Shown here: one piece after another, positions 6,163-28,110 of the stretch | How positions within the stretch are numbered: position 1 is the first letter of the stretch | Layout of the letters: each line of letters begins with the position of its first letter | Origin: Candidatus Brocadia sp. | GTDB taxonomy: Bacteria > Planctomycetota > Brocadiia > Brocadiales > Brocadiaceae | Assembly (NCBI GenBank): GCA_021650915.1 | Contig: CP091279.1 | Location: 2,190,001-2,222,000, forward strand | Length of the DNA: 32,000 nt | Direction: 5' to 3' | Made by a program: the position numbers and the translations under genes | The notes under the pieces: generated by a model | What the model was told of the DNA's origin: nothing | Seen by the model: only the letters and a program-made list of their open reading frames with translations | Database searches by the model: none

Positions 6163-6645
6163 ATGGACAGAGACAAAAAGTATGTCTGGTTTTCCCTCTC
6201 GGTACTTTTCATTTGCGCGGGAATATGCGCTGGTGTCAGGGACGTCTGCGGTGAGGCGTTAAAAAGAAACAAGGTATTGCCAATAAATGTAGCCGGAATT
6301 GAGTTGGAGATAGAGTTGGCAACTACCTCCGAAGAGCAAATTTTAGGTTTAATGTATCGTGATACTTTAGACGATGATGGAGGAATGCTCTTTGTTTTCC
6401 CGAAAGAGAAACATGTATCCTTCTGGATGAAAAACACGCGTATTCCCCTCTCTATCGCCTTTATTAAGGCAGATGGCCGAATTATGCAAATAGAATCCAT
6501 GAAGCCCTACAGTTTGGATTCCCACGTTTCAAGGGAAAAAGTCAAATATGCCCTTGAGATGAAAGATGGCTGGTTCCAAGCACGGAAGGTAAAAGAGGGT
6601 GATATCGTAAGGATACCACAGGCCTTTGATGGCAAGGGGGAATGA
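6163..6645 (+). CDS. DUF192 domain protein with N-terminal signal/anchor
   Basis: MLFVFPKEKHVSFWMKNTRIPLSIAFIKADGRIMQIESMKP...ALEMKDGWF matches the DUF192 (COG1430) pattern as I remember it. The N-terminal segment is hydrophobic (WFSLSVLFICAGICAGV). Confidence 0.75.
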   Translation: MDRDKKYVWFSLSVLFICAGICAGVRDVCGEALKRNKVLPINVAGIELEIELATTSEEQILGLMYRDTLDDDGGMLFVFPKEKHVSFWMKNTRIPLSIAFIKADGRIMQIESMKPYSLDSHVSREKVKYALEMKDGWFQARKVKEGDIVRIPQAFDGKGE

Positions 6646-10915: not shown

Positions 10916-11164
10916 TTATGAAATCCCATCCTTAGCGTCGTTCTGCTGACCAGCTAATTCCTTTGATTTCCACTTGCTTCTTAAATAACGTAAGCCAACC
11001 AGTGCACTGCCACCGGCTGCAAAAAGGGCATAACTAATTGGCTCAGGCACAGGTTTCGGTGGTTTATTTTTCCTTCCGTTAGCATCTGCAGAGTTGACAA
11101 CGATCATTGTGGACAACACAATGGCAGATAAACAACCTCCAAATGTTAACAATCTTTTTCTCAT
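10916..11164 (-). CDS. Mini PEP-CTERM protein (82 aa), copy 1
   Basis: The ATG at 11164 is preceded by AAAGGAGGAATGGAAT. The sequence is MRKRLLTFGGCLSAIVLSTMIVVNSADA (signal peptide) - NGRKNKPPKP - VPEP - ISYALFAAGGSALVGL (TM) - RYLRSKWKSK (basic cluster). This is the canonical PEP-CTERM sorting signal. The track start at 11215 is an upstream TTG. Confidence 0.8.
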   Translation of the reverse strand: MRKRLLTFGGCLSAIVLSTMIVVNSADANGRKNKPPKPVPEPISYALFAAGGSALVGLRYLRSKWKSKELAGQQNDAKDGIS

Positions 11165-11281
11165 ATTCCATTCCTCCTTTTTAGCGATTTTGTTAAATTT
11201 TCCATTACAACACAATTTTTGTCAGTTACCCGTTCCTTTTTCCCTCACCCTATAAACCGGCATTAGGGTAAGTACTTGACA

Positions 11282-11509
11282 TTATTCTGCTGACAAATCA
11301 CTTCCTTTTGATTTCCACCTGCTTCTTAAATAACGTAAACCAACTAACGCACTACCTCCGGCGGCAAAAAGGGCATAACTAATCGGCTCCGGCACAGGTT
11401 TCGGTGGTTTATTTTTCTTTCCGTTAGCATCTGCAGAATTGATAACAATCATCGTGGACAACACAAGAGCAGATAAACAACCTCCAAATGTTAACAATCT
11501 TTTTCTCAT
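11282..11509 (-). CDS. Mini PEP-CTERM protein (75 aa), copy 2
   Basis: It has the same architecture and is near-identical to copy 1 (MRKRLLTFGGCLSALVLSTMIVINSADANGKKNKPPKPVPEPISYALFAAGGSALVGLRYLRSRWKSK). The ATG at 11509 has the same GGAGGAA RBS. Confidence 0.8.
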   Translation of the reverse strand: MRKRLLTFGGCLSALVLSTMIVINSADANGKKNKPPKPVPEPISYALFAAGGSALVGLRYLRSRWKSKGSDLSAE

Positions 11510-11700
11510 ATTCCATTCCTCCTTTTTAACGATTTTGTTAAATTTTCCATTACAACACAATTTTTGTCAGTTACCCGTTCCTTTTTCCCTCACCCTATAA
11601 ACCTGCATTAAGACAAAGCCTGCTGCAAGATTGAGACAGGACAGAAGAAACCGATGCCTGTATTTGCGTATCAGATCCTTCTCTGGAAACAGCTATTAAA

Positions 11701-11876
11701 CAAAAAAAGCCTTACTGCCAACGGATACAACTTTTTTCGGCAGTAAGGCTATCTTTTTCTAGCTCAACTTCCTATTCGCTGGAAAAGATCCTTTCCTTTG
11801 CGTCCCCCGATCACTCGGGGTTTGCCTTTATCGTGTGCTTCTATCTTTCAGAGCTCAGCATGAACTTTTTTTGAGA
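11701..11876 (-). ncRNA. Candidate small RNA / leader: copy 1 of a 3-copy structured motif
   Basis: Box B (11786-11833) contains the hairpin CCCCGA-GUGA-UCGGGG on the minus strand. Box A is the 5' arm of a 12-bp terminator hairpin (11739-11750 pairs with 11708-11719) followed by a U run. A promoter lies upstream (next feature). The 5' end is inferred from the promoter only. Confidence 0.35.
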
Positions 11877-13821: not shown

Positions 13822-15673
13822 AGTGTCTGAACGAAAACGCACTTTTTGTAAAAGTGCGAGGTCGATTTTCTATTTACCAATAGATAATTTTAAGATTTGA
13901 GATTAGGGTTTTTGGCAAAAATACTGTTCTTTTACATATTTCCCTTGTTTTCCCCTTTATTTTAGCCTTGTCTGGGCGTACCTGCCTCCCGGCAGACTGT
14001 TTTTCTTCGTGTTTTTTGCTTGCTTAGGCGGCTTTTCGCAACTTTTCGCACTGCTTCCGTGCCTTCTCCTGCAGCACGTTTCCCAGCTTGTGCAAATTCG
14101 CAGCTAACACGCCCATTGCACAATATCTTTTAAAGGCATGCAGCCCTTTGTCCGGACACCTATCCAAGCCGTGATGCTCCAAACGATTGATATCCGATTC
14201 TACCGCCGAGTGCTTGTGCCTTAGCTTCTTAAATGTCTTACCCGATTCCTCTTCCTGTTCCGCCTTATTCTTCTTGCCCTTCTTGGGAAGGATTACCTCT
14301 GGTATATACAAACTCAGCAACTCTTTATTCTCTTTCTTGTAAAAACCTTTATCAAAACTTATACTCTTTATTGTGCCTTCTCCGTAACGGCTCAACAACC
14401 TATCTGCCAATGGAATTACCAACGATACATCCGCCTGTTTTTCTCCTACCACATGGTCCACGATGAAACCCCACTGATCGCTTGCTACCAGAATATTATG
14501 TCCCAACTCTACCCTTTTGTTTGACTTGCCTTTGTACAGCCACTCCGTATGCGGCTCAAACAACGAATGAACCTTTTCTGCCGCCGGTATTACCTCATCC
14601 CGGATCACCCTTCTCTCCACCAGGTCTATCTGTTTATTCAACATCCCGTGAAAATACTCCAGTGTCCCTATTTTCCCTGCATGCTTGTCTACCTGGTTCG
14701 TCGTTAGCACCTTTTCGTAGATGGCTAACAGACTCGCTCCTATCTTTTCACTCAAACCCCTCGATAATTCCAAGTAACTCCTCACATGCTCTTCCTTGTT
14801 TTTCCCCCCCGCTGCTTGACGCCTTTGCGCTTATCCTCATCAGCTTTTTTAACTCTCTCCTCCAATATTTGCTCTTGCGCCATCCTTTCCCCGCCAGGAT
14901 GCCTTCCTCTATTGCATCCTCTATCATGTCCAGACTCTTGCGTCCCGCATCCCACAATAAATTCATATCGGTCGGAAAGTGTACATTCGTCTCTAACACA
15001 TACGTATCCACCTTAATACACAGTCCTTCGTCCTTTTTTTTAACCAACTGATGCCCCGATGATATCACCACTTCATTTATCTGCCTGAGGGTCTCCTCAT
15101 CCAACAATCTTATATTGTCCTTGATGCTCTGCATCGAAAAAACCTTCGCCTCTCCAAATGCCGTCTCAACCCCCATTATCTGCCTGATAAGTTTGTGATG
15201 GTTGGCAAAATCCTCCAACCTGTCATAATCGGCATCTAACCCTAATCTTACCACCGACAACACCAAAATATGCCATAAATCCATCCCATATCTTCCCGTC
15301 TTTTTCTTCCCCTTCGTTACCTTCGCCTCTAATATCCGGAATACCTCCTCGTTCAACTCCGGTGTAACATAGATATGTTGCAACGCCCTCAGTATCGGTG
15401 GTAGCTCATCTCGACTCTTTATTGGCAGTTTTACCCCTGAAATGGGTATGATGCCAAGCTTCAATTGCTGCTCAAATCTCTTTCTCATCTTCTATCGAAT
15501 GTCCTTTGGCTAGTGGGTTAATGAACCGAATATTTGGACTCTTTATACCCAGAATCCCTTCATTTTCGCCATATTTTACCCTTTTACCCGAAAAAATTCA
15601 ATGACTTTCATGAACATTTTTCACCAGCTTCTCCTTACTTTACAGGGCTCTGGGGGGTTTCCGTTCAAACACT
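13822..15673 (-). mobile_element. 1852-bp IS (IS5/IS1182-like DDE element) nested inside the IS110 transposase gene
   Basis: The terminal inverted repeats are AGTGTCTGAACGAAAACGC (13822-) and the reverse complement of the right end, AGTGTTTGAACGGAAACCC (-15673). The flanking 4-bp direct repeat is AGAT (13818-13821 and 15674-15677). The family assignment rests on a DUF772-like N-terminal region and a DDE-type C-terminal region, and is uncertain. Confidence 0.8.
14024..15488 (-). pseudogene. DDE transposase of the nested IS, split into two overlapping ORFs by a frameshift at a G7A5 run
   Basis: ORFs 14748..15488 and 14024..14785 are in frames +1 apart. Removing one G from the run (complement of 14804-14810) would read ...AKASSSGGKNKEEHVRSYLELSRGL... 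continuously. The C-terminal part contains ...SFDKGFY...HSAVESDINRLEHHGLDRC.... Confidence 0.75.
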
Positions 15674-15677
15674 AGAT

Positions 15678-16634
15678 AAGAACGATAGTCGGATATTTGG
15701 GAAGAAGCTCCCCAATGATCTTGGCTTAATATTAAAGGAATTAAAGCCGTTTCAGAAAGAGATAGAAGGGATCGTGGTAGAGTCGACGTACAACTGGTAT
15801 TGGCTGGTGGACGGATTACAGGCGGCGAAATACAAGGTACACCTGGCAAATCCTGCGGAAATGCAGCAGTATAGTGGAATGCAGTACACGGACGACACAT
15901 GGGATTCCTATTGGTTGGCGCACATGCTCCGATTAGGTATACTGCCGGAAGGCTATATCTATCCGAAAGAGATAAGGCCGGTACGGGATTTATTGAGAAA
16001 GCGAACCATGTTGGTACGGCACCGGACGGCGCACCTATTAAGCCTGCAAAATATGGTGAATCGCAATACCGGAAGAAAGGTGAACGTCAACGATGCGAAG
16101 AGACTGAGCGAAGAAAAGATAAGCGAGCAGTTAACGGACAAACACCACAAAATGGCCGTGCAGAGCGACAAGGCAGTCATAGACTTTTTCCATGAACAGA
16201 TAGACCGGATAGAAAAGGCCGTACTGAAAGAGGTAAAATTACGATATCCGTATGAAGAACTGCTCACCGTGCCGGGGATAGGCAAGATATTAGGGATAAC
16301 GATCATGCTTGAGACCGGAGATATCAACCGATTTCCCACGGTATCAGATTATTCTTCATACTGCCGGTGTGTATCGTCCCAAAAGATATCAAACGGGAAG
16401 AAGAAAGGAGAGGGGAATAAGAAGAACGGGAATAAGTATTTGGCATGGGCATATGTGGAAGCGGCAAATTTTATGCGGAGGTATAGTGAACCTGCCAGGA
16501 GTTGGCATCAACGCAAGGCAGCGAAGACGAACAAGATCGTGGCGATTAAGGCATTGAGTAACAAGGTAGCCAGGGCGTGCTACTTTATCATAAAAGACCA
16601 AACGCCATTTGATCCGAAGAAATTATTTCAATAG
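15678..16634 (+). pseudogene. IS110-family transposase, 3' fragment (318 codons)
   Basis: This is the in-frame part of track ORF 15534..16634, beginning at KNDSRIFGKKLPNDLGLILKELKPF. The 48 upstream codons are read-through of the nested IS end. Confidence 0.8.
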
Positions 16635-17812: not shown

Positions 17813-18817
17813 TCAACTATTTCGCCAAGCCATCATGTTGTTGAAAACCGCCGCAACAATGCGAGTCGAACTATTTGGACAACCGCCATAGGCGTGGATA
17901 CCCACCGCATGACGCTGACCATTAAGGTAACGCCACGTTGGACTACCGCTTTGTCCGCCGTACGTGTCGAGCATATAGTAGAGTTTGCGAGCGGTCATGT
18001 TGGTTATCCTGCCAGCATTGAACCACTGTGTACCGGGTGGTTTGTCACCAGGGTACCCAGAGTTGTTCGCGAGAAGGTTTAGTAGCGAGGCATCCGTCAG
18101 TGCTGCGAAGCCGAACCAGCCGACCTGATTCCCGAGCGAAGCACTGGACAAAATGATGCATCCATAATCGTAGTTCGGGTCGGCATTATTCGTCCAACCA
18201 GTGACGCTACGGAAAGACGTTCCGATCATCGATCCATACGGCCGCGATGCTCCTCGCATGCCTGGAATGACCTCGATCTGACGTGCCCAACCACCGTTGG
18301 CGCTAGAATAGACGCAGTGTCCGGCGGTCATCACTGCTTTAGGGCCAATGAACCAACCTGTGCACCCACCACGCGCGCCGTTTGGAAACGTGATTATTAG
18401 TTTGCAGATCCACCGCCATGGGACCACGGTAGTGCTTGTTACCTCGACACGGTCGTCTCGACCACACACACTCTCAAGTGGAGATCCTTCCGGCCTGCAC
18501 TCACACAGGTCAACCAATTCGTCGGTAAGAATCTCCACTGGCATTCCTTCACCGAGCGCCCGTTGCGGATCAAAGCCTGGCAAGCTTTCAAGTTCCCCGC
18601 CCCGTGGCTCTCCGTCAAAACTCTCAGCGACTTGATCAACGGTCACTGCCGCTTCCCCCCCCGCCATGCCTTCGAGGCGTCCCTCGCTACTGACTGGGGC
18701 ATGCAGAGAACCTGTAGACTCGCCTGAACTGCCGCCACCGCCACATCCACCGGGCTGTGAGTCACCGACATTCCCGGGTCTTTCTGTTCCGGAACTACTC
18801 TCATGGTGTTGAGACAT
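17813..18817 (-). CDS. Trypsin-like S1 serine protease (V8/Glu-specific-endopeptidase-like, COG3591 type) with a Gly/Ser/Glu-rich N-terminal extension and no recognisable signal peptide
   Basis: The catalytic contexts are MTAGHCV (His), YDYGCIIL (Asp) and DTYGGQSGSPTW (Ser). The strong RBS AAAGGAGGTTATC precedes the ATG. The N-terminal ~130 aa are low-complexity and acidic (SQPGGCGGGGSSGESTG...). Confidence 0.85.
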   Translation of the reverse strand: MSQHHESSSGTERPGNVGDSQPGGCGGGGSSGESTGSLHAPVSSEGRLEGMAGGEAAVTVDQVAESFDGEPRGGELESLPGFDPQRALGEGMPVEILTDELVDLCECRPEGSPLESVCGRDDRVEVTSTTVVPWRWICKLIITFPNGARGGCTGWFIGPKAVMTAGHCVYSSANGGWARQIEVIPGMRGASRPYGSMIGTSFRSVTGWTNNADPNYDYGCIILSSASLGNQVGWFGFAALTDASLLNLLANNSGYPGDKPPGTQWFNAGRITNMTARKLYYMLDTYGGQSGSPTWRYLNGQRHAVGIHAYGGCPNSSTRIVAAVFNNMMAWRNS

Positions 18818-19015
18818 GATAACCTCCTTTAACTCGTAATTGGGACCCCCATTGAACCGTGTCGTGCTGGCGGGTCCGATGCCAAGCCGTTCGACTTACT
18901 GTTTAGTGTGTGTATGGGTTTCGCTCTTTCCTTTAACACATCCTTTCTTGTCTGGTGCGGGCAATCAATGTGGCCTAACAAAAAAGTCTCACAACAAAGG
19001 TGTCCCCTAAACATC

Positions 19016-19145
19016 TTCGGCAGTAAGGCTGTCTTTCTATTTTCCTGAAATCCCCCTTAGTCCCCCTTTTATAAAGGGGGGATTTAGGAGGATTAAAGAC
19101 CCCATTACTTTGCGTCCCCTAATCACTCAGGGTTTGCCTTTGTCG
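19016..19145 (-). repeat. Copy 2 of the 3-copy structured motif (no terminator 3' arm; expanded spacer containing a C/G palindrome)
   Basis: Box A is at 19016-19040. Box B is at 19098-19145 with the hairpin CCCUGA-GUGA-UUAGGG (one G.U). The spacer holds CCCCCTTT-TAT-AAAGGGGG (19062-19080). The element starts directly after the stop codon of the 94-aa ORF. Confidence 0.5.
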
Positions 19146-19430
19146 TTATGTTTTTTGTTGTATTGCCTTTATTCCTTCATACCTGCTCCGATTTATTCGA
19201 TAGTAGATATGTGCATCTTTTCCTTTGTGCTCAAGCAGAATGCCTTGCGCTACCAGTTCCGAGAGAGATTCTTTGACCTCACTTGCCTTATGCCTGACCT
19301 TTTGCTTCAACAACCACCATTCCGCGACACCCTCCAGCGTGTCCTCTGCATCGGGATATTCGGACAGATAGGCTAGTATCTCCTGCATAATGTATGGCTT
19401 TCCCGTCGCACACTTTTCATGCTTGTCCAT
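19146..19430 (-). CDS. Small hypothetical protein (94 aa) with a C-terminal winged-helix-like segment
   Basis: The sequence is MDKHEKCATGKPYIMQEILAYLSEYPDAEDTLEGVAEWWLLKQKVRHKASEVKESLSELVAQGILLEHKGKDAHIYYRIN.... It has globular composition and sits about 75 nt downstream of a sigma54-type promoter. There is no strong SD. Confidence 0.55.
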   Translation of the reverse strand: MDKHEKCATGKPYIMQEILAYLSEYPDAEDTLEGVAEWWLLKQKVRHKASEVKESLSELVAQGILLEHKGKDAHIYYRINRSRYEGIKAIQQKT

Positions 19431-19515: not shown

Positions 19516-19533
19516 AAAGCAACCGTCGTGCCC
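19516..19533 (-). promoter_or_regulatory. Sigma54 (-24/-12) promoter
   Basis: The minus strand reads GGGCACGACGGTTGCTTT. That gives GGCAC at -24 and TTGCT at -12 with exact GG-N10-GC spacing, against the consensus TGGCACG-N4-TTGCW. Confidence 0.55.
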
Positions 19534-19869
19534 TCATGGACAAAATTCATTGCATAAAAAGTCGAACTGCTTTCAAATGCCGATCAATGAAGGGATTGGA
19601 GATGTTTTTTGTAAATTTTGAGATCAGACCGAATCTTTGATTTTTCACGTAATTCAAGTATGTACTATGTTCTTCTTGTCTTGGCTATTTCGACGAAAGA
19701 TCGGTAAGGTACTTTCAGTAAACAAGTTAACGGCAGGATAAATTTATCATAGGCAATGCAGGTAAATGTCATGGTTAATAGTATTATCCTGTAAAAATCT
19801 TTTCTTATTAGCAAGTTTCCTAACAACCCCTCTCTGTCCCTCTTTAACAAAAGGGGAATTGACTGATGA

Positions 19870-21315
19870 TTAGTTCTTTTCTTTTGGGTGAGACGGGGTA
19901 ATGCTATGTGTTTTGGTCCTATAGTTTTCCGGGTTGATGTGGTGTTTACGGATCAGTTGCCAGAATGCCCGACGATCCTTCCTGGCGGCCTGTGCCGCTT
20001 TGGTAATGTTGCCGTGATGGGCAAGCAAGAGGCATTGAATATACGCCGTTTCAAATTGTGCGATGATCCTCTCTTTTGCTTCCTGAAAAGACTCCGCCTG
20101 CACACCGGTTTCCGGAGACGGTAGGGCAAGATCTTCTTTCCCTATAATCCTCTGATCAGAGAGGACAACTGCCCGCTCGATTACATGCTCCAGTTCTCTC
20201 ACATTACCATGCCAGTCAAGGAGCGGGAGGAGTTGCAGTGCATCAGAGGAGAATTCGACGGCCTGTTTGTTGTACTCGTCTGCATACTGAGACAGGAAAT
20301 GTCTGGCGAGAAGGGGAATGTCGTTGCGTCGTTCCCGCAGGGGGGGCAGGACGAGGTGGATGACGTTTAATCGATAGTAAAGATCCTGGCGGAATCTCTC
20401 CGCCCTTACCGCCTCTTTCAATTCGGCATTCGATGCGGCAATGACCCGCACGTCTGCCTTGCATACCTTCGGAGAACCGAGCGGCCGGTATTCTTTCTCC
20501 TGGAGAAAGCGCAGCAATTTGACCTGCGCAGGGAGGGAAAGACAGTCTATTTCATCCAAAAAAAGTGTACCACCCGCAGCCTCCTGGATTAACCCCTGTT
20601 GGGATGAAGTGGCGCTGGTAAATGCGCCCGGCTTGTGGCCGAAGAGTTCGTTTTCGAGCAGTTCCGTGGGAATGGCGCCGCAGTTGACCGGGATGAACGG
20701 CTTGTCCGCCCGCGGGCTGAGATAATGGATCGCCCGGGCGCATACCTCCTTCCCGGTGCCGGTTTCTCCACTGATCAGGACCGTTGCGTCACTCTTCGCC
20801 ACACGGGGGATTTTCTGTATCTCTGCCAGAAAGGCCGGATCTTTCCCGATGATGTGTTGCAGTCCAACCTTTTCCAAAAGGGTTTGGTGGAGTATTTCTG
20901 TCGGCGTATTTTGCACCAGTAATCGCCAGATACGGGGAATGATATCGGCTGGTCTGAGCGGTGGCGTAATGAAATCGGTTACACCAGCCTTAAGCAAATC
21001 AAGGATCTCCTCATGCGGACATTCGTCTATGACCAGAATGACCGGTGTTTTCATAAATTTGGTTCGTAAAGACTGCAAGAGTGCACTGGCATGATGAAAT
21101 AAGGTGTGGGGTGAAATGAGAAGTATTATATCTGGATAGAAACGTGGGGCGATTCCAGCAAGGTCACTGGTAAGGAGATCGGATGCCTCTATCTTTACGG
21201 ATTCATAATGCAACGGGGTGTTTAGGCCGCTGGATGATTCGAGAACCCCTTGCAACATCTGACCAAGACTGGATGTGGGGTTAATATCAAGAAGCAATAG
21301 CTTGCCCTGTTTCAT
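19870..21315 (-). CDS. Sigma54-dependent transcriptional activator (NtrC/AtoC-type bEBP) with a degenerate receiver domain
   Basis: The AAA+ sigma54-interaction domain shows GETGTGKE, ENELFGHKPGAFTSA (a GAFTGA variant), LFLDEID and RQDLYYRL. The Fis-type HTH is HGNITKAAQAARKDRRAFWQLIRKH. The N-terminal receiver-like domain lacks the conserved Asp, Thr and Lys positions. Confidence 0.9.
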   Translation of the reverse strand: MKQGKLLLLDINPTSSLGQMLQGVLESSSGLNTPLHYESVKIEASDLLTSDLAGIAPRFYPDIILLISPHTLFHHASALLQSLRTKFMKTPVILVIDECPHEEILDLLKAGVTDFITPPLRPADIIPRIWRLLVQNTPTEILHQTLLEKVGLQHIIGKDPAFLAEIQKIPRVAKSDATVLISGETGTGKEVCARAIHYLSPRADKPFIPVNCGAIPTELLENELFGHKPGAFTSATSSQQGLIQEAAGGTLFLDEIDCLSLPAQVKLLRFLQEKEYRPLGSPKVCKADVRVIAASNAELKEAVRAERFRQDLYYRLNVIHLVLPPLRERRNDIPLLARHFLSQYADEYNKQAVEFSSDALQLLPLLDWHGNVRELEHVIERAVVLSDQRIIGKEDLALPSPETGVQAESFQEAKERIIAQFETAYIQCLLLAHHGNITKAAQAARKDRRAFWQLIRKHHINPENYRTKTHSITPSHPKEKN

Positions 21316-21338
21316 AAAGCCCCCTTTTTTATATAAAT

Positions 21339-21492
21339 AAAAAAAGCCTTACTGCAAAAATGTTTTGGGAAAACACCTTCGGCAGTAAGGCTATCTTTTC
21401 TTGTGGCAAGGCTATCTTATGAACTCACATCCCTGTACGTCTCAAGACCCTTTCCTTTGCGTCCCCTGATCACTCAGGGTTTGCCCTTATCG
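21339..21492 (-). repeat. Copy 3 of the 3-copy structured motif, ending in an intrinsic terminator ~24 nt upstream of the bEBP start codon
   Basis: Box B is at 21445-21492 with the hairpin CCCUGA-GUGA-UCAGGG. Box A forms an 11-bp hairpin (21382-21392 pairs with 21345-21355) followed by a U run (complement of 21339-21344). The sequence TTTATTTATATAAAAAAGGGGGCTTT-ATG follows. Confidence 0.5.
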
Positions 21493-21646
21493 AAATGTAT
21501 CTGTTAGATATGTGAGCAAAACAAACGCCAATGCCATGGCATGAGAAAAATTGTTTGCAAAATTATTTGATATGCCGTGAGTTTTAATCACTTATAAACA
21601 AAAAAAGAAAGGTTTGAATAACAACAGATGAATGCAAAAGATATTC

Positions 21647-21706
21647 GAAAAGTGTGTCATGGCACACTTGTGTGACGTTACACTTGTGTGCCATGACACA
21701 CTTTTC
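21647..21706. promoter_or_regulatory. 60-bp palindrome (two perfect 21-bp arms), candidate regulator/enhancer binding site
   Basis: GAAAAGTGTGTCATGGCACAC (21647-21667) and its exact reverse complement (21686-21706) are separated by 18 nt. ACACTTGTGTG is also directly repeated (21664 and 21680). Confidence 0.5.
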
Positions 21707-21814
21707 TTTAAACGCATACCATGATTGTCGTGCTCAACAATTTTATCCTTGCTTTACCCCCCATATTCCTGTTATTAGTGGTATTTGCTGATTTTTGAAA
21801 GAGATAACATGGTT

Positions 21815-22027
21815 GAAACCACAGATTTCACAGATTGCGCAGATAGTCTTAAAAGCTGATGGCCCTCACGTTAACCCGAATAAGCAGGAAAATACAAGGT
21901 TTAAAGCACAGAGTGTGTGAGTCAACCCTGTCAGGGTTTTAAACCCTGACAGGGTTAGTTTTCTTCATATTTTTGCTACATTGTTACAATTTTTTTTATC
22001 TGTGCAATCTGAGAAATCTGTGGTTCC
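21815..22027. mobile_element. MITE-like element: 31-bp terminal inverted repeats (28/31 match) around a 151-bp core with a 15-bp perfect internal hairpin
   Basis: The left inverted repeat is GAAACCACAGATTTCACAGATTGCGCAGATA (21815-21845). The reverse complement of the right inverted repeat is GGAACCACAGATTTCTCAGATTGCACAGATA (21997-22027). The internal hairpin pairs AACCCTGTCAGGGTT with AACCCTGACAGGGTT (21924-21956). It has no coding capacity. Confidence 0.5.
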
Positions 22028-22061
22028 TGTCGTTACGAACAAAAGGAAAGGACAGACGTGA

Positions 22062-23474
22062 ATGGAAGTTTTTTTTCATCCCTCATCAGTTGCCATCGTA
22101 GGCGCCACGGAAAAACCAGGCAGCCTGCCGGGCATTATCCTGAAAAACCTCCTCGATATGGGTTTTCAAGGCAGGATGTATCCGGTAAATCCGAAATACG
22201 AGACGGTCTTCGGCTTGCGATGTTTTCCCTCACTCCTGGATATTCCGGATGAAGTAGCGCTAACCGTCATTGCTATCCCAGCTCCATTGGTGCTGGAGGT
22301 AGTGCAGCAACAGGCACGGAAATGCATTCACCATGCCATCATTATCAGCGCCGGTTTTCGGGAGATGGGTGTGGAAGGCACGAAAATGGAAGAGGAGATC
22401 AAGCAGGTTGCAATCAAAAATGATATCAGAATCCTTGGGCCGAACTGTTTGGGCGTTCTGGATAATTATGCAAATTTCACCACCTCGTTTCTGTCGTGGG
22501 AACGGGTGAGCTACCCGAAAAAAGGCTCCCTGTCGATCCTCTCACAAAGCGGTGCCTTTGCCATTGCCCTGCTGGACCTGGCATCACAAGAGGGATTGGG
22601 CATAGCAAAAATGGTAAACTACGGAAACAGGCTCGACGTGGGGGAGTCTGCCCTCCTGCCGTTTTTGCGGGACGATGCCCATACCAGGGTAATTGCCATC
22701 TATATGGAATCAGTTGATTACGGCAGGAGGTTTATTGAAGCAGCCAGGTCGTGTTCTGAAAAAAAGCCTATTGTGGCCCTCAAGGTTGGGAAGGGAGCCG
22801 CCGGTATTGCCGCAGCCAGGTCACACACGGGCGCTATTGCCGGGAACTACGCAATCTACCAGGCCGCATTCCTGAAGGCGGGTATTATTGAGGCAAACGG
22901 TCTGGAGGAATTTATCGATGGCGTAAAGGCGCTGTCCATGCAAAGCCCGCCCAGGGGAAATCGCATCCTTATTGTCACCAATGGCGGCGGCTTTGGCGTT
23001 ATTGTGGCTGACCACTGTTCAGAGAACGGACTCGATGTCCCGCTCCCCTCTGCGCAGCTAAAGGAGAAGCTCCGCAACAAATTATCAGCATTCTATGTTG
23101 TGAGCAATCCCGTTGATTTAACCGGAAGCGCGTGCGACCGGGATTATCACACGGCATTGACTGCGTGCATGGCAGAAAGCGATGAATACGATGCGGCCAT
23201 TATCATACCGCTTATGGCGCCGCAGGGCATGACGGAAAAGGTGGTGGATCTTATTGCGGATACGATGAAACGATCAGGAAAACCAGCCGTTATATGCACG
23301 GTGGGCGGGGCGTTTACCCTGAAGATCAAACAACTCTTTGAAGAGCGCGAGTTTCCCGTCTATCCCTCTCCCGAACGGAGCGCAAAGGCCATGTCCATGC
23401 TGCTGAAGAGGAGAAAATTACAGGAAGACGTTCAGAGAAGTAGTCACACAAAGTTACAAAGCCACAAAGAATGA
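22062..23474 (+). CDS. ADP-forming acetyl/acyl-CoA synthetase alpha-type protein (CoA-binding plus succinyl-CoA-synthetase-like domains)
   Basis: Seen: FFHPSSVAIVGATEKPGSLPGIILKNLLDMGFQGRMYPVNPKY (CoA-binding Rossmann), the SQSGAF motif, and the phosphohistidine loop AARSHTGAIAGN. No ATP-grasp (beta) part is present in this ORF or adjacent to it. Confidence 0.85.
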   Translation: MEVFFHPSSVAIVGATEKPGSLPGIILKNLLDMGFQGRMYPVNPKYETVFGLRCFPSLLDIPDEVALTVIAIPAPLVLEVVQQQARKCIHHAIIISAGFREMGVEGTKMEEEIKQVAIKNDIRILGPNCLGVLDNYANFTTSFLSWERVSYPKKGSLSILSQSGAFAIALLDLASQEGLGIAKMVNYGNRLDVGESALLPFLRDDAHTRVIAIYMESVDYGRRFIEAARSCSEKKPIVALKVGKGAAGIAAARSHTGAIAGNYAIYQAAFLKAGIIEANGLEEFIDGVKALSMQSPPRGNRILIVTNGGGFGVIVADHCSENGLDVPLPSAQLKEKLRNKLSAFYVVSNPVDLTGSACDRDYHTALTACMAESDEYDAAIIIPLMAPQGMTEKVVDLIADTMKRSGKPAVICTVGGAFTLKIKQLFEEREFPVYPSPERSAKAMSMLLKRRKLQEDVQRSSHTKLQSHKE

Positions 23475-23731: not shown

Positions 23732-24751
23732 TCAGGGTACGCGTATCCAGACATGTTCCATGAAAATAGCGGCGAAAAGGAACGCCATGCTTGCGATGAT
23801 GGGATAGCGATAAAGGTCTTTTCTCTTTACCACGGTTTCTATGACAATTTTATCTTTTTCCATAGCATCGATCGCATTATAAAATTTTGCGACCTCTTCA
23901 AAATTCTCTGCATGGTAATACCTCCCGCCGGTCGACTCAACAGCCTCTTTTAATTCTTCAATATGCTGGGCCGCGACTTCCGGGTCTACACCCGTGACAT
24001 CCGATGCCTTGACCGCTACGACGTATGCCTTGATTCCCATTCTCTTCAGCAGGCGCAGGGGCCGGGTGGGCGAGATACCAATATTGTATATGCCATCGGT
24101 AAAGAGCACAACCAGCTTGTTCTTGAGCACCTGTCTCTTTTCCATTTCTTTGGCAAAGGAAATGGCGTAATCGGCAAGGTATTCTTTGTTAATGCTGTTT
24201 CTCAATTCTTTTATCGTAAATTGCTTTCCCAGCTCTTTTTCAAAGAGCGCTGCAAGAGAGGTAAAGAGGCCTTCCCCAATGGCCGTCTGATAGCCCACCT
24301 GAGAGGCCTGCACACGCGCCAGGGATTTCTCCAGCAGTTGGGTTTCCATCGTGGGTACGACAATGAGGGCAGCGTCCGTGCCAAAGATGGTAATACTAAT
24401 GAGATCATTCGGCCGTTTTTTTATAAAATCCCCCACAATTTTTTTAATCGTTTCGATGGCCGTTCCCGTCATGCTAAAAGAGGTGTCTATGACAAGGGCA
24501 ATCTCACGTCCAAGAAGATCTGTTTGTTCCTGGCGGTACTTTGTCTGGGGATGCGCGACGGCAACAATTGCAAAAAATACGGCGACAAAAAAAACGGATC
24601 TATTGAGACGGGGAATGATCCTCATGAACCCCGAGGATTCTTTAACGTGGGAGACACTGGAATACCCGATAAACTTCTTCTCCCGCCAAAAAAACCATAG
24701 GAAACCAAAAGGAATAATGAGGAGAAGGAACAAGGGGTTTGCAAAGGTCAT
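23732..24751 (-). CDS. von Willebrand factor A domain membrane protein (BatA-like)
   Basis: The N-terminal TM is MTFANPLFLLLIIPFGFLWFFW. The VWA MIDAS motif is ALVIDTSFSMTG. There is a C-terminal TM. It is the last gene of the MoxR operon. Confidence 0.85.
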   Translation of the reverse strand: MTFANPLFLLLIIPFGFLWFFWREKKFIGYSSVSHVKESSGFMRIIPRLNRSVFFVAVFFAIVAVAHPQTKYRQEQTDLLGREIALVIDTSFSMTGTAIETIKKIVGDFIKKRPNDLISITIFGTDAALIVVPTMETQLLEKSLARVQASQVGYQTAIGEGLFTSLAALFEKELGKQFTIKELRNSINKEYLADYAISFAKEMEKRQVLKNKLVVLFTDGIYNIGISPTRPLRLLKRMGIKAYVVAVKASDVTGVDPEVAAQHIEELKEAVESTGGRYYHAENFEEVAKFYNAIDAMEKDKIVIETVVKRKDLYRYPIIASMAFLFAAIFMEHVWIRVP

Positions 24752-24787
24752 GTATCGGTACCTGGATGTTTTGGAATTTCAAAGTTT

Positions 24788-24856
24788 GAGATTCTTCGGT
24801 CGTTTTACTCCCTCAGAATGACACCATTTGTCATTCCGGGCAAAGCGAGGAATCTC
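24788..24856. repeat. Second copy of the nested palindromic (REP-like) element, intercistronic in the MoxR operon
   Basis: The outer stem pairs GAGATTCTTCG (24788-24798) with CGAGGAATCTC (24846-24856), 10 of 11 positions. The inner stem pairs GAATGACA (24816-24823) with TGTCATTC (24829-24836). It shares the core TGTCATT(G/C)C...AAGCGA(A/G)G(C/G)AATC with 23591-23612. Confidence 0.5.
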
Positions 24857-26258
24857 ATTTCATGTTAAGGCCAGTCCTTTCGATCATCTCTTTTACACCC
24901 TGCAGCATGCTGTCTACCGGCTCTTTTCCCAGATGTCTTCCAAAAATCAGCTCGTCGAGCTGTTTCAATACGGTCTGGATGATCGCTGAAACTTCTTCCG
25001 GAAGTTGTTTTTGCGTATCGTATTTCAGGAAGTCCGACGTCGTGACAGATTGTGCCTGCTCATTTGAAATGCCGATAAGCATACCCGCATACGTCCGCAG
25101 CGCCTTGTTGATGTTGTGAATCGCATTCCTGCTGATGGCTTCATCGTCGGTATACTGAAATGACGCCAAGGTATTTTCCAACCTCTCCAGGGCAATGCGG
25201 GGAGTTTCAACTGCAGGTTTTGGGGCTGCGGGTGACCATCGTCCCGCAAGAGAACGCAAGGTCGTTATCCCTAAAAAAACAAACAAAAGAATACCTGCCC
25301 CCATCGGTAAATATCCATGGGAAAAGACGTCTTTCCGGGAATATGACATGGGGCCCTTGATCCCTTCCAATGGCACGTCCACCGCCTTGAGAAGGCTGTT
25401 TAGAATGACAGGAATAGACGCAGTCTTTACTTCCTGCGTTTCAATAAGCGTACTCCCGGACTTTGCAGCATCAGATTGCGAAGGCGACTCTTCGTAATAC
25501 AAAACCGTGAGCTCAGGAATTTCAGCGGCCTTTTTTTTCCCTGTCAATTCATAGAGGGAAAGCGTGTAGGTTATGAGTGTTTTTTCAGTGGTCCCTTCCG
25601 CACTTTTCTTTATCTCCCTTTGCAGGACTTCAAAGGGAGAAAAATTCAGTTTTTCAATGCTTTCCCACAACAAGTTTACCTTTTTTTCATGCCGTATGGT
25701 AAGGGTATAGGTAATCCGGTCGCCAATGGCAATGACATCCCTATCCACCTTGCCTTCCACATGAATTGGCACCTTTTTAATGGCAACGGGCGCAGAGGTT
25801 GCCATGCCCTCCGTCTTATCTACCTCGTTCCGGTACGGAAGGGAAAAGGCCGGGATTGAATAGATACCCGTCTTGACGTCTGAAGGCAAAGAAAGGGCAT
25901 AGGTAACGACGGCATAGTCATGTTCATTATCAAAGATTTGACGTTCCCCTACGGTTACATTTTCTACCGTAAAGGGAGAAAATGTTATCTTGCCCATCCC
26001 TTCCAGATTAACCGTCACTCCCAGCTTCCACATGATCTGAACGGTCAAATGCAATGTCTTCCCTGTAATGAGCCGGTAATCATCAATAAAGGTCCAGATT
26101 TCCAGGGGCTGGTCTGTCAGGGCAAACTCCGCTACCTCCACCTCCACCGCCGGCGCTGGTATCTGGGGTTGCTCCTGAGCGTATGCACGCATAAAACTAT
26201 TTCCCGGGAAAATTGCGCCGATAATGCCCATCCATAGGGCGATCCTGATATATTTCAT
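24855..26258 (-). CDS. Exported/membrane protein of the MoxR-DUF58-VWA operon (BatD-like; function uncertain)
   Basis: This 467-aa ORF has a signal peptide (MKYIRIALWMGIIGAIFPGNSFMRAYA) and a TM helix near residue 325 (LPMGAGILLFVFLGITTL). Its position is equivalent to BatD-type proteins in aerotolerance-type operons. Its ATG overlaps the DUF58 stop (ATGA). Confidence 0.5.
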   Translation of the reverse strand: MKYIRIALWMGIIGAIFPGNSFMRAYAQEQPQIPAPAVEVEVAEFALTDQPLEIWTFIDDYRLITGKTLHLTVQIMWKLGVTVNLEGMGKITFSPFTVENVTVGERQIFDNEHDYAVVTYALSLPSDVKTGIYSIPAFSLPYRNEVDKTEGMATSAPVAIKKVPIHVEGKVDRDVIAIGDRITYTLTIRHEKKVNLLWESIEKLNFSPFEVLQREIKKSAEGTTEKTLITYTLSLYELTGKKKAAEIPELTVLYYEESPSQSDAAKSGSTLIETQEVKTASIPVILNSLLKAVDVPLEGIKGPMSYSRKDVFSHGYLPMGAGILLFVFLGITTLRSLAGRWSPAAPKPAVETPRIALERLENTLASFQYTDDEAISRNAIHNINKALRTYAGMLIGISNEQAQSVTTSDFLKYDTQKQLPEEVSAIIQTVLKQLDELIFGRHLGKEPVDSMLQGVKEMIERTGLNMK

Positions 26259-27109
26259 CTTCTCCTTCTTCCCCCTCTCCTTATACGCCTGTCGAAAAAC
26301 TCAGAGATTTTTTTTATCCATACTTCCTCATCTTCATCCGTAAATAACGGAATATAATCGATATTTAACTTCTTCAATAACGTCAGGCAAGGCAGAAATC
26401 CTTCCTGCGCAGTTGCAATGCCCAGTGGTTTTATCATGCCGGTCTCCATATCTTGCACCGTGAGAAATCCCCTTGCGTAAGGCAAGGCATTCTCTCTTCT
26501 GTCTGAAATGATCACGGGGACGATCTCGTGAAAAGAGGAAAGCGTTTTCAGAGATTGCTCGTAATTGTAGGGCGCCAGGAAATCCGACAAGATAAACACG
26601 AGGGCTGGCTGGTGTATTTTTTCATGCAAAAAGGTAAACGCCTTGTGAAAATCGGTATGTCTGCCTGCAGGTGTTGCAGGGACAATGCTTTTTGCCCGGA
26701 TAAACGCCTCTTTCTCGCCGGCTTGTGGCTGGATAAAGTTCTCTACCCTGTCGGTAAAGGTAAGAAAGCCGATTTCATTGCCGGCCTCCGAAGCTGCGTG
26801 GACAAGGGTAAAAAGAATGGCTGATTGAACATCTTCTTTTGTGTGGCAAAACGACCCAAACTTCTCCGACCGGCTTTTATCTACCAGAAAGATAATCGTG
26901 ACCCGTTTATCCACGAATTTCATGCGTACATGAAGCCTCCCCGTCTTTGCCGTCGCTTTCCAGTCGATGGCTCTACAATCATCTCCCGGCTGGTATTGCC
27001 GGAGCTCGTCAAGTTCCAGTCCGTGGAGTGCATTCATGTAGCTGGAAAATGATCCTGCAAAGAGGTTTCCAATCAATCGCTGCAGAGTAAGCCGAATCCT
27101 TTTCTTCAT
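26255..27109 (-). CDS. DUF58 domain protein
   Basis: LRQYQPGDDCRAIDWKATAKTGRLHVRMKF is the DUF58 signature. It sits in the canonical position directly after moxR. Confidence 0.85.
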   Translation of the reverse strand: MKKRIRLTLQRLIGNLFAGSFSSYMNALHGLELDELRQYQPGDDCRAIDWKATAKTGRLHVRMKFVDKRVTIIFLVDKSRSEKFGSFCHTKEDVQSAILFTLVHAASEAGNEIGFLTFTDRVENFIQPQAGEKEAFIRAKSIVPATPAGRHTDFHKAFTFLHEKIHQPALVFILSDFLAPYNYEQSLKTLSSFHEIVPVIISDRRENALPYARGFLTVQDMETGMIKPLGIATAQEGFLPCLTLLKKLNIDYIPLFTDEDEEVWIKKISEFFDRRIRRGGRRRR

Positions 27110-27114
27110 CTGGC

Positions 27115-28110
27115 TTATTCCAATATGGGAACCTGATGAAGGATTTTCTCAATAATATCGTCAGCATCGATGCCCTGGGATTCTGCCTCATGAGTAAGAA
27201 TGATTCTGTGCCGTAAAACAGGATAAGCCATGTCGTGGATATGTTCGGGCAATACCATGTCGTCTCCGTGAATAAAGGCATACACACGGGATGCCCGCGC
27301 TAAGGCGATGGTAGCCCTGGGTGAGGCGCCGTACATCACAAGATTTTTTATCGTACCGTTGCCGGCTTCCGGCCTTGTTGCCCTGACTAATCGGGTAATA
27401 TATTTTATCGTGACTGATGTCCCATGCAATGGCAACCACTCGGAAATCATATGCCGGAAAGAGAGCACCTCCCGGGGGGATAAAACAACCGCCAGTTCTT
27501 CTTCACCGTCCCGAATCTGCCTTTCTGTGATTTCTCGTTCGTCTCCGTAGGGCGGATAATGAATTTTCAGTTTGAACATAAATCGGTCAATTTCAGCTTC
27601 AGGCAACAGATAGGTACCCGAAATCTCAATCGGATTTTGTGTCGCCAGCACAAGGAAGAGTTTTTCCAGAGGGTAGGTCTCCCGGCCAATCGTTACCTGC
27701 CTCTCCTGCATTGCCTCAAGTAAAGCGCTCTGCACCTTTGCCGGTGCGCGGTTAATTTCATCGGCCAGCAGGAGATTGGTAAACACAGGGCCTTTTTGTA
27801 ACCGGCTTTTTCTTGTTTCCGGGTCCCACATTTCAAACCCGGTGATATCGCCGGGAATAAGATCAGGCGTAAATTGCACCCTTTGGAATTTTGCATCCAA
27901 TATCCGGGCAACGGTTTTTACCGCAACGGTCTTTCCAAGTCCAGGATACCCTTCCAGCAGGATATGACCATCCGAGAGCAAGGCGACAATGATCCCCTCG
28001 ATCAATTCTTCCTGGCCGACAATGACCTTTCCCACTTCCCGTTTCATGGTTTCGACCTTTTCTTTTACAAAATTTCTATCCCGTATCACGGTTTTTAACC
28101 TAGTCTTCAC
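27115..28110 (-). CDS. MoxR-family AAA+ ATPase
   Basis: Seen: VGQEELIEGIIVALLSDGHILLEGYPGLGKT (Walker A), LLADEINRAPAKVQSALLEAMQERQVTI (Walker B/sensor) and ASPRATIALARA. The start is GTG at 28110. An alternative ATG at 28047 is possible. Confidence 0.9.
   Translation of the reverse strand: MKTRLKTVIRDRNFVKEKVETMKREVGKVIVGQEELIEGIIVALLSDGHILLEGYPGLGKTVAVKTVARILDAKFQRVQFTPDLIPGDITGFEMWDPETRKSRLQKGPVFTNLLLADEINRAPAKVQSALLEAMQERQVTIGRETYPLEKLFLVLATQNPIEISGTYLLPEAEIDRFMFKLKIHYPPYGDEREITERQIRDGEEELAVVLSPREVLSFRHMISEWLPLHGTSVTIKYITRLVRATRPEAGNGTIKNLVMYGASPRATIALARASRVYAFIHGDDMVLPEHIHDMAYPVLRHRIILTHEAESQGIDADDIIEKILHQVPILE

Follow-up and report, generated by a model that had tools for sequence, protein, structure and literature searches.

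A predicted class-I c-di-GMP riboswitch in the leader of a sigma-54-dependent activator gene of Candidatus Brocadia

Introduction

The GEMM RNAs (Rfam family RF01051) were described with a P1a internal loop, a tetraloop and an AAA linker as features of the motif; GYRA-class loops lack the 11-nucleotide (nt) tetraloop receptor, terminators overlap the 3' side of helix P2 in 78 of 322 instances, for which higher ligand was predicted to give higher expression, and the RNAs are common in certain orders of Planctomycetes (Weinberg et al. 2007). Here we analyse one such element in a 32,000-nt stretch of DNA from Candidatus Brocadia sp. (assembly GCA_021650915.1, contig CP091279.1, positions 2,190,001 to 2,222,000 of the forward strand), called the window throughout, with positions counted from its first letter. 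The element, copy 3 of three in the window, lies on the minus strand before the gene of a sigma-54-dependent activator, a bacterial enhancer-binding protein (bEBP), and is very probably a class-I riboswitch for cyclic di-guanosine monophosphate (c-di-GMP) that acts as a transcriptional ON switch for this gene (19870-21315).

Copy 3 shares with the RF01051 class the full-length model match, the P1a internal loop, the AAA linker, the GUGA loop without the 11-nt receptor, the canonical G, A and C contacts, a terminator that takes its 5' arm from the 3' side of P2 (here P1b), the predicted ON polarity and the occurrence in Planctomycetes. Its arrangement matches the 'type 2' design, in which a GYRA tetraloop is likewise combined with a terminator that overlaps P2 (Weinberg et al. 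2007, Fig. 2B). Unlike the type 2 reference, copy 3 holds a 45-nt insertion in distal P1b with a duplicate of the P1b 3' strand, its gene encodes a sigma-54 activator, and its promoter is possibly of the sigma-54 type.

We take Vc2 of Vibrio cholerae, upstream of tfoY, to be the structural reference of the same aptamer class; like copy 3 it presumably controls a transcription regulator, c-di-GMP acting through this secondary regulator. Vc2 has a GAAA tetraloop with its receptor and no simple overlapping intrinsic terminator, whereas copy 3 has a GUGA loop and a clear terminator platform. Cd1 of Clostridioides difficile is said to be a member of the class that works by intrinsic-terminator control, as an OFF switch upstream of flagellar genes; there the ligand disrupts an antiterminator, whereas in copy 3 the terminator is predicted to compete directly with the aptamer, with the opposite polarity. 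Control of bEBP output by c-di-GMP is also found in FleQ, VpsR and FlrA, sigma-54-type activators that bind c-di-GMP directly, and the AAA+ domain of the Brocadia activator is homologous to PDB entries of this group (FleQ chains at about 1e-68 to 1e-67, VpsR at 7e-52). Unlike in these proteins, the link proposed here lies at the RNA level, in a riboswitch on the activator mRNA. In a literature search of a limited collection, which is weak evidence, no report was found on c-di-GMP riboswitches in Brocadia or other anaerobic ammonium-oxidizing (anammox) bacteria, nor of a c-di-GMP riboswitch controlling a bEBP gene.

Results

A class-I c-di-GMP aptamer before the activator gene

The window was searched with the Rfam 15 covariance models (4227 families, gathering thresholds). 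Exactly three matches were obtained, all of the c-di-GMP-I clan and all on the minus strand (11735-11835, 19016-19148 and 21378-21495), which correspond to the three copies of a motif that a first-pass annotation had noticed from the letters. The third matches RF01051 over the full length of the model (positions 1-87 of 87) with 56.7 bits, compared to a gathering threshold of 35, and E = 1e-08 for the whole window and all families. Its parts are:

21378-21495, minus strand: c-di-GMP-I (GEMM-I) aptamer, copy 3 (Rfam RF01051 and sequence reading)
21491-21494 and 21378-21381, minus strand: helix P1, UUCG pairing with CGAA (sequence reading)
21464-21479, minus strand: P1a hairpin CCCUGA-GUGA-UCAGGG, with flanking GC/GC pairs and a GYRA-type tetraloop
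21446-21456 and 21384-21395, minus strand: helix P1b, 5' strand AGGAAAGGGUC and 3' strand (sequence reading)

The P1a region reads GC-AAA-CCCUGA-GUGA-UCAGGG-GAC-GC, that is, stems of 2 and 6 base pairs (bp) with an AAA internal loop between them and a GNRA-type GUGA tetraloop as cap, and is followed by an AAA linker to the second hairpin. The GUGA loop places the aptamer in the GYRA class. The ligand-contact positions are canonical: the G before the GC pair (AAGG-GC), the A after GACGC, and the CC between P1b and P1, at 21381-21382. These we take to be the equivalents of G20, A47 and C92 of Vc2 (the last within the junction CC), in the numbering of the crystal structures. At the level of sequence, copy 3 has every feature by which membership of the c-di-GMP-I class is judged, and c-di-GMP is the ligand predicted from the binding-site nucleotides.

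Two other ligand specificities were considered. Several orthologous leaders (61-67 bits) and copy 1 (62.1 bits) score on the RF03167 'GGC' model, whose cut-off is 59, which would fit an aptamer for the ligand of the c-di-GMP-I-GGC variant; 3',3'-cyclic GMP-AMP (cGAMP), the ligand of the Geobacter GEMM-Ib RNAs, is the other candidate. The best family of copy 3 is RF01051, however, not RF03167. The position that defines the GGC variant (A47 to G) is an A in copy 3 (GACGC-A-AAG), and the sequence is GACGC-A-AA or GGCGC-A-AA in every copy, the three of the window as well as the orthologous ones, so none is a true GGC variant despite scores just over the cut-off, which reflect the likeness between the two models. 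Selectivity for cGAMP is reportedly marked by a change of G20 to A. The equivalent position is G in copy 3 (AAGG-GC) and in all its relatives, which argues against cGAMP selectivity. Both the GGC and the GEMM-Ib assignments were rejected, and we regard sensing of another dinucleotide as highly improbable.

The aptamer shares a strand with an intrinsic terminator

Downstream of P1b the leader runs into a terminator, a ribosome-binding site (RBS) and the activator gene:

21345-21392, minus strand: intrinsic terminator hairpin of 22 bp (11 bp, one bulged C, 11 bp, loop CCC; minimum free energy fold)
21339-21345, minus strand: U7 tract of the terminator (sequence reading)
21313-21326, minus strand: RBS AAGGGGG (21320-21326) and start codon ATG (21313-21315) of the activator gene (sequence reading)
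19870-21315, minus strand: sigma-54-dependent activator (bEBP) of 481 amino acids (aa) (PF00158 at 1.3e-67, PF25601)

The outer stem pairs AGCCUUACUGC (21382-21392) with GCAGUAAGGCU (21345-21355) over 11 bp, and the inner stem is formed by GAAGGUGUUUU and AAAACAUUUUU around the CCC loop. The hairpin contains GC pairs and stands directly before the U7 tract, as in a rho-independent terminator; a simple terminator scanner missed it, probably owing to the bulge. Homologous hairpins, where fully captured, have a dG of -21 to -28 kcal/mol. The 188-nt leader folds at -60.7 kcal/mol, compared to -41.3 ± 3.9 for dinucleotide shuffles (z = -4.9), none of the 200 shuffles being as good. Only 23 nt, mostly RBS, separate the U tract from the ATG, and 63 nt separate the aptamer from it; the RBS sequence GGGGGCTTTATGAAACAG is conserved among orthologues. 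The parts that the first-pass annotation had listed on the minus strand (a 'box B' hairpin, a duplicated sequence, an 11-bp terminator with an inner stem, a U run, and the RBS with its AUG) were all recovered, the 'box B' being the P1a hairpin of the aptamer, and its proposal of a leader that controls termination versus antitermination gains support from the overlap of a c-di-GMP-I aptamer with an intrinsic terminator.

This overlap sets the expected polarity. The segment 21371-21392, which is the 5' arm of the terminator, also supplies the 3' strands of P1b and P1 and the CC between them. It can serve only one of the two structures at a time, so a bound aptamer excludes the terminator and c-di-GMP would prevent termination. 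Transcription would start upstream of 21495, possibly from a sigma-54-type promoter at 21516-21530, and the aptamer (P1, P1a with its GUGA loop, P1b) would be made first. Bound c-di-GMP would lock P1 and P1b; the strand AGCCUUACUGC-CGAAG would then be occupied, the 22-bp terminator blocked, and RNA polymerase would proceed through the 23-nt spacer into the activator gene. In the ligand-free leader the GCAGUAAGGCU strand, extended by the inner stem, would invade P1b and P1, the terminator would form and transcription would stop at U7. Given the 23 nt between the U tract and the ATG, the gene of the window genome would be transcribed solely by read-through.

The ligand of this class is reportedly c-di-GMP, and both polarities are said to exist, so that an OFF switch, in which c-di-GMP promotes termination as in Cd1, has to be weighed. 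Such a switch requires an antiterminator, a competitor of the terminator that breaks up when P1 forms, and no separate one was seen in the folds of the copy 3 leader; moreover, the 5' arm of the terminator is itself the 3' half of the aptamer, and the bound aptamer keeps this strand from the terminator. An OFF switch is therefore scarcely probable, and an ON polarity is what the overlap predicts.

Conservation of the leader in Brocadiaceae

An activator of identical sequence is encoded on LAQJ01000135.1 of assembly GCA_000987375.1, presumably Candidatus Brocadia fulgida and one of the assemblies used in a published study of anammox genomes, and among the matches listed the closest activator homologues are annotated as Ca. 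Brocadia. Orthologous loci (about 64-78% protein identity where a value is listed) were fetched one by one and are designated here by L numbers; in a whole-protein search of genome contigs the matches listed were mostly distant family members. In the Rfam scan of L007, L087, L088, L089/L090, L091/L092, L093 and L094, the orthologous gene is directly preceded by a c-di-GMP-I aptamer that reads in the same direction, whereas the sequence of L097 starts within the aptamer and that of L096 within the terminator. The leader thus precedes orthologous bEBP genes in eight other Brocadiaceae sequences (L097 included) from about six further lineages, the conservation that the first-pass reading of a regulatory leader had called for. 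In L095, neither aptamer nor terminator was found in the 250 nt upstream of the gene.

All leaders carry AGCCUUACUGC and, further on, GCAGUAAGGCU, followed by a U tract. Of 16 Brocadiaceae riboswitches, 15 retain the terminator 3' arm while loops and flanks diverge, and the outer 11-bp stem is 99.4% paired over 15 riboswitches, with four one-sided changes that preserve pairing as wobbles. The distance from aptamer to ATG is 63 nt in the window and in L091/L092, and 160-320 nt in the other loci. The extra spacer of L089 and L093 is an insertion resembling a miniature inverted-repeat transposable element (MITE) into otherwise collinear sequence, so the compact arrangement of terminator and gene looks ancestral.

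MITE-like elements occur at differing sites of the orthologous leaders (L089:2830-2990, L093:440-610, L007:1500-1640), between terminator and RBS in L089 and L093 and upstream of the aptamer in L007; they end in inverted repeats around TTTTTGAAAAA/AACTAAATT and contain a GTAGGGGC...GCCCCTAC hairpin.

Outside Brocadiaceae the leader was not found. No Rfam aptamer match was obtained in 20 distant loci with activator homologues of other phyla (about 50-60% identity), and among the matches listed a regular expression for the core motif matched none of 80 loci outside the family. The idea that the riboswitch generally accompanies this bEBP family was consequently rejected.

Candidate promoter of the leader

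A possible promoter was found by pattern match just upstream of the aptamer:

21516-21530, minus strand: candidate sigma-54 (-24/-12) promoter TGGCGT-TTGTT-TTGC(T)

The predicted start lies near 21503-21505, about 10 nt upstream of P1. The candidate is the single match to TGG-N8-TTGC in the intergenic region 21496-22061, in the correct orientation, and a similar TGGTAT-TTGTC-TTGCT stands at the same relative position in L094, a distant Brocadiaceae locus. Against it, the motif is absent in five other species, two of which have sigma-70-like boxes, identified by eye in the orthologues L093 (TTGACA-N17-TATTTT) and L091; the type of promoter is therefore not conserved. The enhancer motif of the neighbouring sigma-54 promoter described below is absent upstream of 21516-21530. 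On balance the candidate may drive the leader as a sigma-54 promoter, a proposal to which we give somewhat less than an even chance.

A sigma-70 promoter was also sought, and a simple scan gave no minus-strand match in 21496-22061, between the aptamer and the divergent gene at 22062, in agreement with the first-pass annotation, which had found no convincing one. Its further statement that there is no room for a promoter between terminator and RBS holds for the window and for L091/L092 (23 nt) and fails in other species, where 100-320 nt lie between terminator and gene.

The divergent intergenic region contains further symmetric elements. At 21650-21710, a pair of 16-bp palindromes (GTGTGTCATGGCACAC and GTGTGCCATGACACAC) with 34 bp between them sits within a larger inverted repeat. 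The pair precedes the candidate sigma-54 promoter by about 120-190 bp and is similar to CRP/FNR-type sites (TGTGN-N6-NCACA), and a related AAGTGTG-N7-CACACTT is found upstream in L089. A perfect palindrome with 15-bp arms, AACCCTGTCAGGGTT-TTA-AACCCTGACAGGGTT, lies at 21924-21956, upstream of a CoA-ligase-like gene (22062-23474, plus strand).

Points against the ON switch, and the short-RNA alternative

Several points weigh against an ON switch for the activator gene. Ligand binding, termination and read-through in copy 3 are themselves predictions. By nearest-neighbour energies, a fold with the duplicated strand (-32.8 kcal/mol) is 10 kcal/mol more stable than the ligand-free aptamer (-22.6 kcal/mol), so the aptamer must owe its formation to kinetics and to the energy of ligand binding and tertiary contacts. 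Compensatory double changes are lacking in the outer terminator stem of the 15 Brocadiaceae riboswitches, although covariation there carries no information, since the aptamer constrains one of the two arms. The identity of the promoter is uncertain; matches to the loose sigma-54 pattern occur in the window at chance frequency (7 found, 6.1 expected). Finally, most orthologous loci have 100-320 nt from terminator to gene, where an extra internal promoter is possible.

The same long spacers could suit an aptamer and terminator that form an independent short RNA of about 160 nt, a c-di-GMP-binding sponge or small RNA, with the activator gene transcribed from its own promoter; the terminated product would indeed be a stable structured RNA. 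The 23 nt, mostly RBS, in the window genome and L091/L092 argue against it, as does the MITE-like origin of the longer spacers in L089 and L093. Orientation and adjacency are moreover kept in all Brocadiaceae loci with enough upstream sequence, although L095 has no leader in its 250 nt. We therefore consider an independent RNA very unlikely, and retain the ON switch.

A duplicated P1b strand in the insertion

The insertion in distal P1b repeats part of the helix:

21408-21418, minus strand: first copy of AAGAUAGCCUU, in the P1b insertion (sequence reading and folding)
21387-21397, minus strand: second AAGAUAGCCUU, the true P1b 3' strand, running on as ...ACUGCCGAAGG (sequence reading)

AAGATAGCCTT is present at both positions on the minus strand, the duplicate matching at 10 of 11 nt compared to a background best of about 6 of 11 in other inserts. 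The first AAGAUAGCCUU could be a decoy partner for the P1b 5' strand, which would make the leader a three-state switch: decoy pairing would free the true 3' strand for the terminator, and c-di-GMP would have to drive strand exchange to the true strand. The effect would be less leakiness and a higher c-di-GMP threshold, a refinement of the ON-switch model and no replacement for it.

The thermodynamic predictions are consistent with such a decoy. The decoy helix appears in folds of the growing transcript from 101 nt onward, and the ligand-free probability of the true P1b pairs is low in the leaders with the duplicate (0.00 in the window, 0.08 in L089, 0.06 in L091) compared to the bEBP leaders that lack it (0.81-0.99 in L007, L087, L093 and L094). 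Low values are nevertheless also found where no duplicate is present (0.19 in copy 1 of the window, 0.22 in L095), and CCUUG has an alternative partner in CAGGG/CAAGG, with which it could close a distal P1b hairpin like that of the related insert in copy 2 of L091. The match exceeds background and is retained in three species (window, L089 and L091); however, the whole insertion is about equally conserved among them, which gives no selection signal specific to the duplicate, and these are just 3 of the 7 leader lineages with an examinable insert (that of L097 is cut), so the duplicate lies outside the core mechanism. The support for the decoy is thermodynamic prediction, and we consider it unlikely; the duplicated AAGAUAGCCUU appears to be a lineage-specific embellishment that could tighten the OFF state.

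Repeats are also seen in other P1b loops: the distal loop of the orthologous riboswitch at L094:875-950 is a tandem repeat (CCGTTTAAA/CCGTTTTAAA)n, and several copy 2 riboswitches (those of L007, L087 and L095) carry related GTTTAAAC-rich hairpins.

The regulated activator and its likely target

The activator combines a degenerate receiver-like N-terminal domain, an AAA+ sigma-54 interaction domain, an AAA lid and a C-terminal helix-turn-helix-like region. The AAA+ domain is that of a bEBP, with the sigma-54 interaction loop GAFTSA instead of GAFTGA. No NCBIfam equivalog was found at its cut-off, and Pfam gave no Response_reg match at E <= 0.001. The N-terminal 150 residues align with receiver domains and are degenerate: the conserved Lys of NtrC1 (PDB 1ny5; DFLTKP) is replaced by Pro (DFITPP), and the position that we map tentatively to the phospho-acceptor Asp is Ser or Leu throughout the family, so that the Asp and Lys of a phosphorylatable receiver both seem to be absent. 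The activator thus seems non-phosphorylatable, and control of its amount by c-di-GMP would be a plausible substitute.

Three features lie downstream of the activator gene:

19146-19430, minus strand: conserved open reading frame (ORF) of 94 aa, function not assigned, following the activator gene in every locus
19518-19533, minus strand: near-consensus sigma-54 promoter GGGCAC-GACGG-TTGCT before the 94-aa ORF (motif)
19735-19750, no strand assigned: palindromic upstream site ATGATAAATTTATCCT (consensus AGGAYAWATTTATCCT), conserved in all Brocadiaceae loci and in L098

The 94-aa ORF follows the activator gene also in L098, a Deltaproteobacterium, whose counterpart is 45% identical, and the sigma-54 motif before it is conserved in 10 other loci including L098 (L098:9633). 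From this conserved adjacency the promoter at 19518-19533 is a probable target of the activator, and the palindrome is probably the enhancer for that promoter. The bEBP, the sigma-54 promoter, the palindrome and the 94-aa ORF form a module that crosses phyla, from Brocadiaceae to a Deltaproteobacterium. High c-di-GMP would raise the level of this activator, which seems closed to control by phosphorylation, and would thereby turn on the conserved downstream promoter.

Autoregulation of the activator through the enhancer of the small ORF was also considered and found unsupported: a search with AGGAYAWATTTATCCT (up to 3 mismatches) gave 19735-19750 as the sole good match and none upstream of 21530.

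Other c-di-GMP riboswitches of the window

The remaining two Rfam matches of the window are:

19016-19148, minus strand: second c-di-GMP-I aptamer, copy 2 (RF01051, 54.3 bits)
11735-11835, minus strand: third c-di-GMP-I aptamer, copy 1 (62.1 bits on the related RF03167 model)

Copy 2 starts exactly at the stop codon of the 94-aa ORF, as in all orthologous loci, and lies upstream of a trypsin-like protease gene (17813-18817; Pfam Trypsin). The genes after this second riboswitch vary, with the trypsin-like protease in the window, C1 or C70 peptidases elsewhere, and others. With copy 3, copy 2 brackets the module of pseudo-receiver bEBP, sigma-54 promoter and 94-aa ORF, and the two riboswitches possibly make up a coherent feed-forward AND gate in Brocadiaceae, a suggestion that we rate as tentative, at roughly one chance in three. 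In such a gate c-di-GMP would be needed twice: first for read-through into the activator gene, and then for the activator-dependent transcript to pass the second riboswitch and extend into the variable downstream cargo, which comprises secreted proteases in several loci and other genes elsewhere; the B. fulgida lineage may add the decoy, which would raise the threshold.

In the window the 3' arm of the copy 2 terminator is decayed (18990-19030; UGUGAGAC in place of GCAGUAAGGC), and a weak hairpin of -10.5 kcal/mol is left before a U6 tract, while the orthologues keep the full arm. Downstream of the activator orthologue of L089/L090, a group II intron D1-D4 domain (RF02003, 84.6 bits; 6259-6402) stands just before the small-ORF homologue and the second riboswitch.

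Copy 1 has an overlapping terminator of the same type as copy 3 (11703-11750) and a TTGACA-N18-TATACT promoter. It precedes two tandem small PEP-CTERM proteins (region 10916-11606, minus strand), which are encoded in the 94% identical units of a 300-nt direct repeat (10962-11261 and 11307-11606); this position ties c-di-GMP to exosortase-type surface proteins. Between copies 1 and 2 there are transposase genes (DDE_Tnp_1 at 14024-14785, minus strand; IS110 family at 15534-16634, plus strand). Upstream of the divergent CoA-ligase-like gene lies a cluster of MoxR AAA_3 ATPase, DUF58, BatD-like and VWA genes, a Bat/aerotolerance-type operon (23732-28110, minus strand).

Discussion

Copy 3 is a routine member of a known riboswitch class that can be detected automatically, and its ON-type terminator platform is of the kind described in 2007. 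The RNA class, its architecture, the logic of its polarity and its distribution in this phylum were already published in 2007-2008, and neither a new RNA class nor a new mechanism is involved. What is new here is the target gene and its wiring in anammox bacteria, points that we infer from the genomes compared. Through them, a sigma-54 regulatory module of Brocadia is connected with c-di-GMP, a messenger that has been implicated in how anammox biomass aggregates and forms granules. The module itself is conserved across phyla, and its control by a riboswitch was found in Brocadiaceae only.

If the two riboswitches do act as a feed-forward gate, they would be a riboswitch-based replacement for the phosphorylation control that the activator has lost. 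They would also be a natural example of layered second-messenger logic, and would give a handle on the c-di-GMP-dependent expression of proteases and surface proteins in anammox bacteria.

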